Of a stretch of DNA of 3,829 nt, positions 1 through 3,829 are shown piece by piece; positions within the stretch are counted from its first letter, which is position 1, and each line of letters opens with the position of its first letter. The notes beneath the pieces were generated by a model that did not search any database, had not been told where the DNA came from, and saw only the letters and a program-made list of their open reading frames with translations. A program made the translations under genes and the position numbers. This stretch comes from Escherichia coli (GTDB lineage Bacteria > Pseudomonadota > Gammaproteobacteria > Enterobacterales > Enterobacteriaceae). Location of the stretch: assembly GCF_003334785.1 (NCBI RefSeq), contig NZ_QOWV01000050.1. The stretch is one strand, 5' to 3'.

Positions 1-62
1 AGAAAATATCCGGCGGGTTCCGGAGCGCCAGTCTGTAGGTTTATCCATCAATAGAACTCCGT

Positions 63-287
63 CTAATTTAGAAGGAGTTCTAATTTAGTCTGCAAGGAGC
101 AGGTGTTACAGACGGCATTGGCTTTACGCTTACCGTTTATATAAAAGCTGTCCTGCAATTTGCGGGTAACAACTTCTGCCAGGCGATTCCGGTTATCCGC
201 CAGTCCGGCATAACCTCTCTCTGTCAGCCACTCATTCAGTTCATGTTTCAGAGACAGATTGATAATATCATAATCGGACCTTGCCAT
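63..287 (-). CDS. Small hypothetical protein, about 74 aa from the ATG at 287 (the ORF track extends it to 99 aa from a TTG at 362); possible DNA-binding or regulatory protein, function unknown
   Basis: Open frame on the minus strand ending at TAG (65..63). The ATG at 287..285 is preceded by AAGGA with about 7 nt spacing (minus-strand reading GCTAAGGAAACGGGA-ATG). The track's start at 362 is a TTG preceded by a GGGGGA run 3 nt upstream. The product (MARSDYDIINLSLKHELNEWLTERGYAGLADNRNRLAEVVTRKL...) has a helical, charged composition and a single CxxC (CNTC) near the C-terminus. Same strand as all neighbours. Confidence 0.45.
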   Translation of the reverse strand: MARSDYDIINLSLKHELNEWLTERGYAGLADNRNRLAEVVTRKLQDSFYINGKRKANAVCNTCSLQTKLELLLN

Positions 288-382
288 TCCCGTTTCCTTA
301 GCACACATTTTCAGGCACGGGGATAAAGTATAAAGAATGTCGTACTGCTGCTGCCAGAGCAATATTCCCCCTGATGGTTGTA

Positions 383-1042
383 TCAGAGATGGTATGCCGG
401 TACTTTGCGGGTTGTTCCTGTCAGGTTATCGTGCACCTCCACGGTCGTGGTCACCACCGGCATTCCGGCCTTTCTCAGCCTCAGAACATCAGCCGCAATA
501 CGCTGACTACCAAACCAGAACAGGCCGTCCAGTGCAGTCACCAGTAAACCCGCCTCCAGTGCATACTTCAGCCGTTCACGGGGCGCTTTCACTTCCCGGG
601 CAACCTGCTGATATGGCAATGATGTGTTTTCATTCCCAACCACGCGACGAATACGGTGAGACAGATGATACCGGAATGTATCCGGCACACCAGAAAGGCT
701 GGCCTTCAGGCTGTACACGCAACCAAACCGTTTATCGTTAAACACCACATTTTTCTGGCTGATGCCCCATTCTTCACGCAGCGCGGCAATCAGTTGTGGT
801 GTCCGGGTAAGCAGCAAGCGAAAAGGCAGTTCAAAACTGGTGACGTAATCCACATTCAGCAGTGCAATACGCAGCCGTTCTTCTGGCCCGGCCTCTGTCT
901 GCCGGCACTCCTCCAGAACATCCTGCCACTGCTGGCGAAGACGGGGCGATTCGTTCCGTTCTGTAAAACAGTATTTATCCGCCAGATAGTCAATTTGTGT
1001 ACGCATACTGAAGAGCATTCCGTATAAAGATTCAGCTGACAA
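383..1042 (-). CDS. Hypothetical protein, about 211-219 aa, no family recognised; start uncertain (TTG at 1042 in the track, first ATG at 1018)
   Basis: Longest ORF in the window, minus strand, stop TGA at 385..383. The translation has protein-like composition with amphipathic helical stretches (LRIALLNVDYVTSFELPFRLLLTRTPQLIAALREEWG), whereas the overlapping plus-strand ORFs (337..741, 656..1027) are Pro/Ser/Arg-rich antisense-like. No Walker, HUH, PD-(D/E)xK or other clear catalytic motif; only a minimal R-x4-H (RYHLSH) that is not diagnostic by itself. None of the candidate starts (TTG 1042, ATG 1018, ATG 1006) has a convincing Shine-Dalgarno, so the N-terminus is uncertain. Confidence 0.6.
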   Translation of the reverse strand: MSAESLYGMLFSMRTQIDYLADKYCFTERNESPRLRQQWQDVLEECRQTEAGPEERLRIALLNVDYVTSFELPFRLLLTRTPQLIAALREEWGISQKNVVFNDKRFGCVYSLKASLSGVPDTFRYHLSHRIRRVVGNENTSLPYQQVAREVKAPRERLKYALEAGLLVTALDGLFWFGSQRIAADVLRLRKAGMPVVTTTVEVHDNLTGTTRKVPAYHL

Positions 1043-1139
1043 AACTTTATCAGTCCATAAGAATCAACGGAAGCACCGATGGTTCACTTGGTCATCGCCA
1101 AGTTTTGCCATAACCGGTAGCAATGATCATTCTGTGTAA

Positions 1140-1310
1140 CTATTTGGCCCACAGATGATGATGTTTATCGATGTCTCCTCTGTCTGAATGTCGCATAAAG
1201 AGGATCATCAGCAGACACAGCCAGTGAACCACCGTCCGCGGAACAAAGCGCCGGACCACATCCGGATCCGGCAGGGGCATGACTGGCATGATCAAGTAAT
1301 TATGTCGCAT
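1140..1310 (-). CDS. Candidate 56-aa small protein with a hydrophobic segment (possible small membrane peptide), apparently coupled to the upstream Cys-rich gene
   Basis: The ATG at 1310..1308 lies 5 nt downstream of the stop of the Cys-rich paralog B (minus-strand reading TGA-GGGAG-ATG, so a GAGGGAG SD-like element overlaps the upstream stop). The product MRHNYLIMPVMPLPDPDVVRRFVPRTVVHWLCLLMILFMRHSDRGDIDKHHHLWAK contains a roughly 14-18 residue hydrophobic stretch. The track's 80-aa version (start 1382) would overlap the upstream gene by about 67 nt and seems less likely. Weak evidence; could be chance. Confidence 0.25.
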   Translation of the reverse strand: MRHNYLIMPVMPLPDPDVVRRFVPRTVVHWLCLLMILFMRHSDRGDIDKHHHLWAK

Positions 1311-1315
1311 CTCCC

Positions 1316-1729
1316 TCACTCCTGGTCCCGGAGCAAATCTGGCTGGTATCTGTAAACATACTTCGTACATGCCGCTCTGCAATAAATCCCCGTACCACAG
1401 GTTTCACAGAACTTCTTCCCATGAAAAAGCCTCTCGCACATCACGCAATGCCACTCCAGCACGACAGGTAATGGCGATAAAAACATCGCCATATCATCAA
1501 TGTAAGGATGGGATTTTTCCGGATTCAGCACCACACAGGCCGCCTTCTGTTGCTCGCTCAGGGCATGTAAATCATGCTCAAACCACGCCCCCTGAGCATC
1601 TGTCTGCAAAATCAACCGACCACGACAGGAAAGGCAGAAACAATGCCTGATATTTCTGCTGAGCGCAGAATCGGCACTGATAATGTGCTCACCCGGCGTG
1701 ATCCCCAGCCCCGTTTTTAGACCGTTCAT
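1316..1729 (-). CDS. Cys-rich putative zinc-binding protein, paralog B (137 aa); function unknown
   Basis: Minus-strand ORF whose ATG (1729..1727) overlaps the stop TGA (1728..1726) of the upstream paralog as ATGA, with a GAGGAGG SD-like sequence inside the upstream gene's 3' end. It shares with paralog A an N-terminal CxxC (CLSC) followed about 13-15 residues later by W-F-E-H (nt about 1574..1585), and a C-terminal W-H-C-x2-C-x9-C-x-T-C-x-T-G signature (WHCVMC...CETCGTG). Conservation of these motifs between two adjacent same-strand ORFs is strong internal evidence that both are real. Confidence 0.72.
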   Translation of the reverse strand: MNGLKTGLGITPGEHIISADSALSRNIRHCFCLSCRGRLILQTDAQGAWFEHDLHALSEQQKAACVVLNPEKSHPYIDDMAMFLSPLPVVLEWHCVMCERLFHGKKFCETCGTGIYCRAACTKYVYRYQPDLLRDQE

Positions 1730-2115
1730 CCTGCCACTGCCTCCTCACTGAAACGCCCTGTATGACAGTGTGTGCAGTACCGCTCCCCATAATAATCGTG
1801 CTGGCATTGTCTGCAGTGCCAGTTGGCTTTACGCACCACGGGTAAGGCATCCGGTACCCATTGCTGTAAGCGTTTAATCAACAGTATTTCTCTGCGCTCC
1901 GGTCTGACATAAGGGCACTCATGACCGTGCTCAGCCAGCCCTTCGCCAGTGTGTTCAAACCAGGGACGCTCGGTATCGTATTGCGGGTGGTATCTGAGCG
2001 CACTGCCGCAAAGGTGACAGGTGTATCGATCGTAAGGCGCTGTCTGTGCAGTACGGGCACCAGTCAGGCGTCCGTTGCCATCGAATGCGAGAAAAGATTT
2101 TGCGTACATCGTCAT
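1726..2115 (-). CDS. Cys-rich putative zinc-binding protein, paralog A (129 aa); function unknown
   Basis: Minus-strand ORF with ATG at 2115..2113 (alternative ATG at 2109) and GAGGAA upstream (minus-strand reading GCTGAGGAAT-ATG). It contains CHLC, then W-F-E-H (nt about 1951..1962), then a C-terminal WHCRQC...CTHCHTG zinc-ribbon-like arrangement, with the same order and spacing as paralog B. The spacing does not match P2 Ogr / P4 Delta zinc fingers as I recall them. Confidence 0.72.
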   Translation of the reverse strand: MTMYAKSFLAFDGNGRLTGARTAQTAPYDRYTCHLCGSALRYHPQYDTERPWFEHTGEGLAEHGHECPYVRPERREILLIKRLQQWVPDALPVVRKANWHCRQCQHDYYGERYCTHCHTGRFSEEAVAG

Positions 2116-2371
2116 ATTCCTCAGCCGCCAGACGACACGCAGGCAGCAACCGTCCCGGTACGGGCAGCGTGGTCAGGGTGTGAATGGCGGTTCAGTTAAA
2201 AATCTGGAATGGGGTTAAGGTAAAACAGACAGGCTGCTGTTACAGCACTGTGGTTGTCACACAATGGCCCACCGACGTAAAAAACTGTCAGCAAGCAGAG
2301 ATGGACATCCAGCGCATGCAGCACCGTTGCAGCCATCAGGGGTTTTACTGGTGTGTCATGTATAGTTAAGT

Positions 2372-2397
2372 CTCCGTATGGTTTCGTTCATACGGAG
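2372..2397. repeat. Perfect inverted repeat / hairpin (9-bp stem CTCCGTATG / CATACGGAG, 8-nt loop GTTTCGTT) in the non-coding gap
   Basis: Read directly: 2372..2380 CTCCGTATG, loop 2381..2388, 2389..2397 CATACGGAG. It sits about 93 nt downstream of the HUH-protein stop (2491) on the minus strand. There is no U-tract on either side, so it is not a canonical intrinsic terminator; it could be an RNA stability element, a protein-binding site or a nick-site hairpin. Confidence 0.5.
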
Positions 2398-2490
2398 TAA
2401 CCACATCGTAAAAAATGCATAGTGCCTCTGAAGTAGCCTCCGGAACCGACTGCAAAGATTAGAGCCAGTCCGCAGTTGTCGCTCAGAACC

Positions 2491-3090
2491 TTATACCTGA
2501 GAACATATCCCCGGCAGGGTGCTGTCCAGTCGCGGTCGCCCCCGGTGACTTTTTTCAGGAAGCCTGCTGCAACCAAGAACGATGCCACATTCTTTCTGTT
2601 CTCGTTTGGCAAGGTAGCTAATGGCATAGCGTAAAGCATTCACCGCTTTGTGGTCTGAATAGTGAATGACGTGGTTAATGTTTACCGGATAATTTTTATT
2701 AAACCGGCACCAGTGGTAGTAACCATTACCATCGGTAACCCGCCTCCAGATATCTCCCATCAATCTGGATACCAGATACGAACTCCTGTGGATCTGACCG
2801 TTCAGATAACCCACAAAATGAATGTGAAGCCCTTTACGTTCCGTATATTCCATCACCCAGGCATACCCGACCAGTTTATCTCCTACCTCGTTAATCAGTT
2901 GCAGCATCTCCGCGCACATGGCATACCTGCAGGCGCATCCGTAGCTGAATGTGTTTTTTCGGTAAGCAAAATCCATTCTGAACGGTAACAGTTTCGAATA
3001 TACCCCGAATAATGAATCCAGATGCTGGTTAAAGTGTGTCAGGAGCTGGGGATCCATTTCGTAACCGGGATTGGCGTTGTAAGTCTTCAT
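2491..3090 (-). CDS. HUH-endonuclease-like (Rep-like) protein, YagK/YfjJ 'inovirus Gp2-like' family, about 199 aa
   Basis: Minus-strand ORF, stop TAA at 2493..2491. The likely start is the ATG at 3090..3088, preceded by GAGGAAG (minus-strand reading ACGAGGAAGAAAC-ATG); the track's upstream ATG at 3117 adds 9 residues and lacks an SD. Sequence shows an HUH motif G-L-H-I-H-F-V (H-I-H at nt 2818..2826) and a downstream Y-L-A-K (nt 2605..2616), the arrangement of HUH relaxase/Rep active sites (His pair for metal, catalytic Tyr in YxxK). The size is about that of E. coli CP4-6 YagK as I remember it. Family name is from memory, not a search. Confidence 0.65.
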   Translation of the reverse strand: MKTYNANPGYEMDPQLLTHFNQHLDSLFGVYSKLLPFRMDFAYRKNTFSYGCACRYAMCAEMLQLINEVGDKLVGYAWVMEYTERKGLHIHFVGYLNGQIHRSSYLVSRLMGDIWRRVTDGNGYYHWCRFNKNYPVNINHVIHYSDHKAVNALRYAISYLAKREQKECGIVLGCSRLPEKSHRGRPRLDSTLPGICSQV

Positions 3091-3265
3091 GTTTCTTCCT
3101 CGTGTTCTGTAACACAAGAAGAAGCGCTGGCGTAATTTTTGAAGAAAACGTTATCACACGAAGACGTGCAAGTTCACAACTCCCCGGGCGCCACAGAGAA
3201 AGTGGGACCACACCCGGGTATCAGAACCATACAGAGAACGGCATACGTGACTGTCAATCACAGCG

Positions 3266-3278
3266 CAGATAATATCTG
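3266..3278. repeat. 13-bp palindrome CAGATA-a-TATCTG between the small gene and the HUH gene
   Basis: Read directly from sequence (6-bp arms, 1-nt centre). It lies in the 231-bp intergenic region upstream of the HUH-protein start on the minus strand; a possible operator, but palindromes of this size are not rare by chance. Confidence 0.3.
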
Positions 3279-3321
3279 ATATGATGTCATTGTGACGACT
3301 GTACTTCATCAGAAACATTTA

Positions 3322-3534
3322 TCAGGTAACATATTTCCAGACTGAAGCGGGAACACGATCGTAAAGTTTGTTCATGGTCAGTTCTGCCAGCCGGTGATCG
3401 ACCGCAGAGTTGAAGGCTTCCATCTCCGCTGGAGTAAGCTTATAACGCGTGTGGGAAATCACTTTTTCCAGTGTCTCCCGGGATGAACAACGACGGAACT
3501 GATACAGCCAGTCTTCTTTGGTCTTAACTTCCAT
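3322..3534 (-). CDS. Small hypothetical protein (70 aa) immediately upstream of the HUH gene; possible regulator, function unknown
   Basis: The ATG at 3534..3532 is preceded by GAGAGGA (minus-strand reading AACGAGAGGATA-ATG); stop at 3324..3322. The track's longer 117-aa version starts at 3675, but that N-terminal extension runs through a palindrome-rich AT-rich region and has no SD, so the shorter form is preferred. Product MEVKTKEDWLYQFRRCSSRETLEKVISHTRYKLTPAEMEAFNSAVDHRLAELTMNKLYDRVPASVWKYVT is charged and helical; it does not resemble AlpA as I recall it. Confidence 0.5.
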   Translation of the reverse strand: MEVKTKEDWLYQFRRCSSRETLEKVISHTRYKLTPAEMEAFNSAVDHRLAELTMNKLYDRVPASVWKYVT

Positions 3535-3571
3535 TATCCTCTCGTTATTTTGTGCTGTGATTAACGTTAAC

Positions 3572-3577
3572 ATAATA
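3572..3577 (-). promoter_or_regulatory. Candidate -10 hexamer TATTAT (minus strand) for the small-protein / HUH-protein transcription unit
   Basis: Minus-strand reading ...GTCAGAATACGTTATTCTGACGG-TATTAT-GTTAACGTTAATCACAGCACAAAATAACGAGAGGATA-ATG. TATTAT matches the sigma70 -10 consensus at 5 of 6 positions and lies about 38 nt upstream of the ATG at 3534. The -35 region is poor (GTCAGA/TCAGAA) and overlaps the 10-bp-arm inverted repeat. Pattern-based only. Confidence 0.3.
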
Positions 3578-3578
3578 C

Positions 3579-3601
3579 CGTCAGAATAACGTATTCTGAC
3601 G
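3579..3601. promoter_or_regulatory. Operator-like perfect inverted repeat CGTCAGAATA-acg-TATTCTGACG (10-bp arms, 3-bp spacer)
   Basis: Read directly: 3579..3588 CGTCAGAATA, spacer 3589..3591, 3592..3601 TATTCTGACG. A perfect 10-bp-arm inverted repeat is unlikely by chance in 3.8 kb, and it overlaps the -35/spacer of the candidate promoter, as expected for a dimeric repressor operator. Confidence 0.45.
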
Positions 3602-3806
3602 TCATCCCGGAAGTCTTTCCACTTTCCTGTCTCTCCGGTAATAAAACATTTTAAATGCTGAAGGCATAACGCCATAACCAGATATTACAAGTAACGTGGC
3701 GTTACACGTGTTAATGCATTACAGAAGTAACAGAGACAATCAGATAGTAAACGTAACCGGCTCATTTAAACCGTCTGGTCTGTTTCCTCCGGCTCTACAA
3801 AAATAA

Positions 3807-3828
3807 TGTCCATCATTTTTAATGGACA
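3807..3828 (-). terminator. Candidate intrinsic terminator for a minus-strand gene lying beyond the window end
   Basis: Stem TGTCCAT (3807..3813) / ATGGACA (3822..3828) with an 8-nt loop. On the minus strand the hairpin is followed by TTATTTTTGT. The stem is short (7 bp, 3 GC) and sits at the window edge, so this is tentative. Confidence 0.35.
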
Positions 3829-3829
3829 C

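Follow-up and report, generated by a model that had tools for sequence, protein, structure and literature searches.

The stretch of Escherichia coli DNA analysed here, 3,829 nucleotides of contig NZ_QOWV01000050.1 (RefSeq assembly GCF_003334785.1) and hereafter called the window, carries a 199-aa open reading frame (ORF) with the sequence hallmarks of HUH endonucleases, which we term gp2A. An initial annotation had taken gp2A for an intact Rep-like protein and had paired it with a hairpin in the 375-bp gap past its stop codon. Our analysis supports the protein half of this interpretation and reassigns the hairpin, very probably, to the leader of a deleted sister gene, gp2B. The features concerned are listed below; numbered loci (L001 and so on) are the genomic regions compared.

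2491-3090, minus strand: gp2A, HUH Rep-like ORF of 199 aa, with its ATG at 3090 and its stop codon at 2491-2493; RefSeq CDS WP_000860803.1.
3093-3124, minus strand: gp2A leader hairpin, CUUCUUCUUGUGUU-ACAG-AACACGAGGAAGAA, from RNA folding; a GAGGAAG Shine-Dalgarno (SD) sequence lies in its 3' arm, and it ends 2 nt before the ATG.
2372-2397, minus strand: hairpin, probable relic of the gp2B leader, CTCCGTATG / 8-nt loop / CATACGGAG, with a perfect 9-bp stem, 93 nt from the gp2A stop.
2300-2359, minus strand: relic gp2B start codon (2357-2359) and decayed 5' coding remnant of about 60 nt, from alignments to intact alleles.
2292-2299, no strand assigned: deletion junction at which the gp2B body of about 570 bp was lost, from alignment to L012.
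2116-2291, minus strand: conserved gp2B 3' flank, doubling as the 5' region of the zinc-ribbon genes, from alignments to L002 and L012.

The gp2A ORF is intact and matches WP_000860803.1, which RefSeq names "inovirus-type Gp2 protein" or "YagK/YfjJ domain-containing protein". Its H-I-H motif occupies residues 89-91 and is followed by the hydrophobic stretch FVGY, and its Y-L-A-K motif occupies residues 159-162. Both had been picked out in the initial annotation and both hold up in an alignment of 51 diverse gp2A-family representatives, where R38, D40, G75, E81, H89, H91, W115, Y159, K162 and G184-R185-x-R187 are invariant or nearly so, and E81, H89, H91, Y159 and K162 are the same in 51/51. 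Secondary structure prediction places E81 in the strand preceding the HUH strand, H89 and H91 in strand 87-97, and Y159 and K162 towards the end of, or just past, helix 147-161. Since Y159 is conserved and Y155 varies among the representatives, gp2A is of the single-tyrosine type, and its motif order, HUH and then tyrosine, makes it Rep-like, unlike canonical MOB relaxases. The C-terminal tail, with RGRPR at residues 183-187, resembles an AT-hook; the S/G-R-G-R-P-R motif of this region (window 2491-2548, residues 181-199) is invariant in gp2A-type members of many genera, forms of 350-400 aa included, and is missing from gp2B/YfjJ-type proteins.

Profile searches gave matches to PF23343 REP_ORF2-G2P (E=1.9e-4), covering residues 71-163 with the HUH strand and the tyrosine helix, and to PF11726 YagK_YfjJ_C (E=5.1e-4), in agreement with the RefSeq names. 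Among relatives of gp2A at 36-88% identity, 8/8 match both Pfam families at E<=0.1, and 6/8 match PF23343 at E<=0.001. When 1.84 billion representatives were searched with a profile, 2,157 family clusters (50% identity) came up at E<=1e-3, many of them proteins of 350-400 aa with the HUH domain at the C-terminus; a genome-wide locus scan gave 7 loci only, owing to the narrow peptide pattern used. In PHROGs, gp2A matches an unannotated family only. The best fold matches of the gp2A model in Foldseek are the nuclease domains of parvovirus NS1, adeno-associated virus (AAV) Rep and SIRV Rep.

Several results weigh against this assignment. Both Pfam matches are weak, and no NCBIfam model matches gp2A. 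Foldseek against the PDB returned hits only at E>=3e-3 and TM ~0.3, with unrelated alpha/beta folds interleaved. Disrupted copies of gp2A occur elsewhere (one annotated as frameshifted in L030, split ORFs in its place in L028, an in-frame stop in L006), and the literature on the YagK/YfjJ family, already described in the initial annotation as poorly characterised, gives annotations only, with no activity, nick site or phenotype reported for any member. By sequence, no solved homologue was found, the matches to RecT and to designed proteins being spurious. Given the weak Pfam matches, gp2A is by sequence an outlying subfamily. The HUH reading is nonetheless well supported, chiefly by motif conservation and to a modest degree by fold, and we regard HUH family membership as very probable. 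Judged from its sequence, gp2A is an intact single-tyrosine HUH Rep-like protein and a divergent member of the YagK/YfjJ (PF11726) - REP_ORF2/G2P (PF23343) group.

A different reading is that gp2A no longer acts as a nuclease here, being either a decaying remnant or a DNA-binding or regulatory protein that works through its AT-hook-like tail alongside Hha, whose gene is co-directional with gp2A. The mosaic island flanked by insertion sequences (ISs), the deletion of gp2B, the frameshifted or truncated copies in other strains and the invariant GRPR tail are all compatible with such a loss. Against it stand the catalytic-type residues, all invariant in the 51 representatives, and the substitution pattern: dN/dS is ~0.2 among E. 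coli gp2A alleles (0.05-0.25 for the window against four alleles), and the core, residues 70-165, is nearly constant. These allele comparisons show gp2A to be under purifying selection, and pure DNA binding would need no HUH histidines and tyrosine together; we consider loss of nuclease function improbable.

The gap on the other side of the stop codon (2116-2490) holds no annotated gene, as the initial annotation had it, but it is not simply non-coding, as gp2B has left its leader, its start codon and ~60 nt of decayed 5' coding sequence there. A search with the 375 bp found matches in 3,779/5,426 genomes, mostly as two pieces flanking a gene annotated as "inovirus Gp2 family protein". In strain CRE1540 (L002), where the gene so annotated is gp2B, the zinc-ribbon gene and the sequence downstream of gp2B align with window 1747-2291. 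The sequence directly upstream of gp2B, reaching into its start codon, aligns with window 2325-2443, where the hairpin lies. The gp2B protein matches PF11726 strongly (E=1e-47) and is of the classic YagK/YfjJ kind, with H-Y-H and Y-L-A-K motifs. It shares ~19% identity with gp2A, and BLASTP finds no similarity between the two.

We then built a synthetic tandem query in which the L002 gp2B gene and its leader were joined to the window spacer and gp2A. One genome only, STEC434, matched it collinearly over its whole length as one uninterrupted piece (92.8%), and both genes are annotated there as intact. Window 2100-2291 aligns with STEC434 (L012) 4985-5175 at 92% and window 2300-2519 with L012 5748-5971 at 76%; the 572 bp between the aligned blocks (L012 5176-5747), essentially the gp2B body, are missing from the window. 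With the gp2B body gone between two aligned flanks, the 375-bp gap is a deletion scar. The relic reads ATG ACA CAC CAG TAA and has a 13-nt internal deletion relative to intact alleles. An Escherichia albertii locus (L006) was rejected as the tandem ancestor: it carries gp2A-like and gp2B-like genes, but its spacer is unrelated and holds no homologue of the hairpin.

Other arrangements of HUH genes were seen along the way. The STEC434 island (L012, NZ_CP129383.1 73805-85340) holds three HUH paralogs, namely gp2A (5943-6542), gp2B (5254-5820) and a third gene with a YagK/YfjJ domain (2588-3097). In L004, gp2A is joined by a distant third HUH type that comes after the zinc-ribbon genes; L010 carries a tandem of two gp2A-like genes. 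A 4,468-bp UNVERIFIED 'Escherichia phage' contig with 3.7x coverage (L033, OR844780.1) carries gp2B at 94% identity; host island DNA present in a phage preparation is its most likely source.

The hairpin at 2372-2397 is present as initially described. As DNA it folds with -8.9 kcal/mol (z = -4.0). Dinucleotide shuffling of the 375-bp gap yields an equally good hairpin in ~0.9% of cases, and shuffling the whole window does so in ~8%. Its sense-strand tail is ACUUAACUAUAC; a reading as an intrinsic (Rho-independent) terminator was rejected because the U-run is missing and a terminator scan was silent on both strands. Membership in a known structured RNA family was likewise rejected, Rfam having no match at E<=1 anywhere in the window.

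In a 14-sequence leader alignment, the window hairpin is homologous to the gp2B leader of L002, L012, L020 and L021. At intact loci the sense strand of this leader reads UUCCGUAUG-AAC-CAUACGGAG, with a GGAG SD sequence in the 3' arm and the ATG 6 nt past the stem. In the window the GGAG of the sense-strand 3' arm lies at 2372-2375 in plus-strand coordinates, and the relic ATG follows 12 nt downstream of the hairpin. The gp2B leader is present in 3,653/5,426 complete E. coli genomes, and the hairpin just 5' of the gp2B ATG, with GGAG in its 3' arm, is found in STEC434 and in ~3,600 other genomes. The loop is 3 nt long in most alleles (e.g., L002 and L021) and 8 nt in WCHEC020031 (L020), where the gene is intact; the 8-nt loop of the window is thus an allelic form and not a sign of decay. 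From the STEC434 tandem, the breakpoints and the leader alignment, we conclude with high confidence that the hairpin is the leader relic of the deleted gp2B. The initial annotation had presented it as a dedicated element paired with gp2A, a misassignment that follows from the loss of the sister gene.

Could the same hairpin nevertheless be a DNA nick site or origin for gp2A, or for gp2A and gp2B together? HUH enzymes commonly recognise hairpins near their own gene, and the shuffle test makes this one improbable by chance. The stem is unchanged in 12/14 copies, among them two relic lineages that have kept it after the loss of gp2B while the coding remnant diverged strongly, and the hairpins that directly precede the starts of the two paralogs differ from one another, as paralog-specific cis sites might. 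By position, however, the hairpin belongs to gp2B and not to gp2A, and ~3,600 genomes have it with gp2B but without gp2A. The geometry of SD sequence and ATG fits an mRNA element, and the occurrence of both 3-nt and 8-nt loops in alleles with an intact gene argues against a nick site carried by the loop. In L022, the closest relative of the window, 2 of ~12 substitutions fall in the 3' arm of the hairpin, which counters the argument from stem constancy. No T-run, iterons or AT-rich unwinding element flank it, and one-sided changes in the stems remain compatible with pairing on the sense strand only. Taken together, a nick site at 2372-2397 appears unlikely.

The one-sided changes are three: U.G to C-G in the gp2A leader, U.G to C-G in the outer part of the gp2B stem, and G.U to A-U between L007 and L010, each pairing through G.U on the sense strand alone. 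gp2A itself has a leader hairpin (3093-3124), in which RNA folding gives the SD region a pairing probability of 0.91. This hairpin is kept in 7/7 gp2A loci examined, with the single U.G to C-G change. The two leader hairpins are analogous and non-homologous, and they stand in a common layout, consisting of an A/T-run, TTACG, ~10 nt, the hairpin and the ATG. Rolling-circle initiators are typically kept tightly limited. On the evidence of these sequences, the gp2B leader hairpin fits a translation brake on the mRNA better than a DNA nick site, and the hairpins of gp2A and gp2B may act on their mRNAs by holding down translation of the nickases.

This interpretation has to face several contrary results. 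The 14 gp2B leader copies, which are too similar to one another, contain no compensatory pair changes and show one-sided changes and loop-length variation only; covariation was accordingly rejected as support for the hairpin. SD occlusion (positions -15..-5) did not set the family apart, with a mean pairing probability of 0.58 in 18 family leaders drawn from several genera and 0.54 in 89 control genes (p=0.13), so that SD-occluding hairpins are not demonstrable as a family-wide trait. The constancy of the stem in the relic lineages hints, moreover, at a constraint independent of gp2B translation. We therefore lean only slightly towards an action of the gp2B leader hairpin at the RNA level.

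The genomic context of the family bears on what gp2A might do. Seven look-ups (Acinetobacter, Klebsiella, Citrobacter, Providencia, Halopseudomonas and two further contigs) all showed the HUH gene in association with an AlpA-family gene. The two genes adjoin directly in 6/7; the exception is Providencia, with ~2 kb between the HUH gene and both alpA and the integrase. The HUH gene is often followed by a Zn_ribbon_11 gene and faces a backbone of GTPase, DUF932, antirestriction and RadC genes. In E. coli K-12 the order is intA, yfjH, alpA, yfjI (DUF3987), yfjJ. In Pseudomonas tmRNA islands, a study from 2025 gives IntY, AlpA, RadC, YqaJ and an "inovirus Gp2-like protein" as the likely core, and reports that the islands excise to circles or linear concatemers and are transduced by a jumbo phage (PMC12595487).

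A role can be proposed on this basis. Excision of the island, driven by AlpA and the integrase, would come first. gp2A would bind AT-rich island DNA through its GRPR tail, with E81, H89 and H91 holding a divalent metal, and Y159 would cut one strand at a specific site and become covalently joined to the 5' end. The nick would start rolling-circle-type synthesis of the circular island, giving single-stranded or concatemeric copies for transfer or packaging. Two observations at the locus weigh against such a role in the source strain: no integrase lies within 20 kb of the window locus, and this, together with the IS-ridden state of the island, means that the mobility module may no longer operate there. 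For gp2A as a nickase in island replication or transfer, a role predicted from motifs and context, we see the chances as evenly balanced.

gp2A might alternatively be a Rep-type relaxase of conjugative mobilisation, which would nick an origin of transfer (oriT) and pilot single-stranded DNA (ssDNA) through the type IV secretion system of a helper. Rep-like relaxases exist in other integrative mobilisable elements, and the backbone of antirestriction, DUF932, RadC and SSB genes is typical of DNA that enters by conjugation. A 41-kb circular record of island genes combines gp2A with SSB and a type IV coupling protein (T4CP)-like 'TraM recognition domain' protein; neither a relaxase nor a replicon was recognised in it. 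There is no T4CP, however, within 20 kb of the window locus, the plasmid-borne family members sit on large plasmids with machinery of their own, and no feature here separates an oriT from a replication origin. For a related island class, the sole experimental transfer route reported is phage transduction (PMC12595487). We consider this relaxase role unlikely. A canonical MOB relaxase was rejected, given the HUH-then-tyrosine order, the lack of a T4CP within 20 kb and the typing of the circular record, L022, as non-mobilizable (PLSDB/MOB-suite).

This record (CP088535.1, 41,067 bp, deposited as a plasmid) lacks a typed replicon and relaxase. In addition to the T4CP-like protein and SSB it encodes a tyrosine integrase, YeeU/YeeV, RadC, an antirestriction protein and gp2A at 99% identity, and the relic gp2B leader occurs in it twice. 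The record may represent an excised or circular form of the island, or else an assembly artefact.

Taken as a whole, our best explanation, that gp2A is an HUH protein with a rolling-circle nickase role, that the nearby hairpin is a gp2B leader relic and that the leaders serve as brakes on the mRNA, seems to us reasonably probable. A broader proposal is that the AlpA-adjacent YagK/YfjJ/gp2A proteins form a large class of Rep-like nickases (>2,000 clusters at 50% identity) that amplify excised tRNA- or tmRNA-type islands by rolling circle or as ssDNA or concatemers, each paralog acting on the hairpin before its own start codon, where one element would be both nick site and translational brake. 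This is a doubtful, speculative extension. If true, a large nickase class would span the CP4-57/CP4-6-type islands of E. coli and the jumbo-phage satellites of Pseudomonas.

The remaining features of the window are given here.

3322-3534, minus strand: island-borne Hha paralog (NCBIfam NF008191, E=1e-30, and RefSeq), directly upstream of gp2A on the same strand.
1726-2115 and 1316-1729, minus strand: two overlapping 'putative zinc ribbon protein' genes (RefSeq), which recur beside HUH and AlpA genes.
383-1042, minus strand: ECs1377-family protein in the co-directional block (NCBIfam NF052300, E=1.6e-98; phrog_24243).
3579-3601, no strand assigned: perfect 10-bp palindrome, 45 nt upstream of hha.
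1-48 and 3753-3829, no strand assigned: ends of IS66-family elements, at both window edges.

All genes of the window, namely the Hha paralog, gp2A, the two zinc-ribbon genes, one small ORF and the ECs1377-family gene, are on the minus strand, and because both edges are IS66-family ends, the source genome has an IS66 copy on either side of the hha-gp2A-zinc-ribbon-ECs1377 block. Window 1-3752 is 100% identical to the chromosome of enterotoxigenic E. coli TW10722 (L001), the closest complete genome, which departs after 3752. The TW10722 locus is a mosaic, IS-ridden island with Cah/Ag43, a YeeP-type GTPase, DUF932, antirestriction and RadC/JAB genes and a Qat defence system, and gp2A sits in a degenerate E. 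coli island of the tRNA-island type. The Qat anti-phage system (QatC, QatD, KAP NTPase) lies at L001 1887-6446, ~14-18 kb to one side of the window, together with a SLATT-domain gene and remnants of a type VI secretion system. PADLOC returned zero matches for gp2A, gp2B or their neighbours, and a role of gp2A or gp2B in anti-phage defence was rejected on this ground.

The zinc-ribbon genes share 4 nt (1726-1729) in an ATGA-type overlap, an arrangement suggestive of coupled translation. E. coli has the two genes together with HUH genes repeatedly. In Klebsiella and another genus their relatives carry Zn_ribbon_11/DUF7828, and a single gene of this kind comes after HUH-AlpA. At 52-82, directly beside the IS66 end, is an inverted repeat, TAGAACTCCGTCTAA / TTAGAAGGAGTTCTA, with 15-nt arms, 93% complementarity and a 1-nt spacer. 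The palindrome at 3579-3601, listed as a repeat in the initial annotation, is indeed a perfect 10-bp one, but it is so only in the window allele and L004; other alleles have a 5-nt deletion and keep CGTCA..TGACG. A consensus scan marks it as terminator-like on the minus strand. It lies in an AT-rich intergenic region (34-38% GC, ~950 bp; window 3535-3752, L001 23535-24480) between hha and a divergent block with an AlpA-like gene, which contains 8 GTTAC/GTAAC pentamers against 2.0 expected and TTACAG-type direct repeats. This region may have a regulatory role, serve as an origin or be a target of H-NS/Hha.

Islands of this type occur in most E. coli genomes and carry virulence, defence and toxin-antitoxin cargo, and an intact HUH nickase candidate beside alpA is an obvious candidate for their replication or movement after excision. 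A defined protein with candidate cis sites would make these processes testable. gp2A is already annotated, its family is known and the locus holds neither a new kind of system nor a mechanistic surprise. For experiments, it offers a reasonable way into a question that is open, though not prominent. The value of the re-analysis is that it redirects the search for a nick site away from the downstream hairpin, which belongs to the leader of the deleted sister.

Finally, we compared gp2A with known systems. PF23343, the best Pfam match of gp2A, refers by its name to the replication-associated proteins ORF2 and G2P. Unlike inovirus gene II, gp2A has no phage context, its neighbours being hha, zinc-ribbon, ECs1377 and IS66 genes. 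Searching 50,697 phage records with gp2A and gp2B by tblastn returned no inovirus: gp2A led to two Acinetobacter phage records, and gp2B to one unverified, host-like contig. We rejected an identity as inovirus gene II initiator on these two grounds; 'inovirus Gp2' is an annotation name and not a demonstrated relationship to f1 gene II. The 108 plasmid matches listed are mostly Acinetobacter plasmids of ~110 kb or records larger still, the smallest having 27 kb, with no small rolling-circle plasmid among them. As no small replicon is among these matches and the hairpin is that of the gp2B leader, a rolling-circle plasmid Rep with an adjacent nick hairpin was also rejected. Canonical MOB relaxases differ from gp2A in having the tyrosine N-terminal to a 3-His motif, with oriT and a coupling protein next to the gene. 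The nuclease domains of parvovirus NS1, AAV Rep and SIRV1 ORF119 share 9-15% identity with gp2A, with weak Foldseek matches (E>=3e-3), and gp2A has neither a helicase domain nor a viral genome around it.

Leader control is known for genes of rolling-circle initiators and transposases, as in the occlusion of the IS200 tnpA ribosome-binding site and the control of pT181 and pMV158 rep. The gp2A and gp2B leaders resemble these in placing a stable, SD-containing stem-loop directly 5' of the start codon, here in two non-homologous paralog leaders, but no antisense RNA, attenuator or repressor partner was identified for them. The Pseudomonas I23/I44/I55 tmRNA islands, which excise to circles or concatemers and transfer as satellites, have AlpA beside the Gp2-like gene, RadC and YqaJ in their core, as do the Acinetobacter loci examined here (PMC12595487); they belong to another genus and integration site and typically encode a long protein of ~360 aa, and the likeness is one of gene name and context. 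Within E. coli K-12, YfjJ (CP4-57) and YagK (CP4-6) offer a further comparison. gp2A matches the PF11726 family of these proteins at E=5e-4 only, and the strong member gp2B ends in ...NFGCSRS without the GRGRPR tail of gp2A. With YfjJ and YagK, gp2A shares the superfamily, with its H-x-H strand and Y-L-A-K helix, the kind of island, the proximity to alpA and a size of ~190-210 aa.

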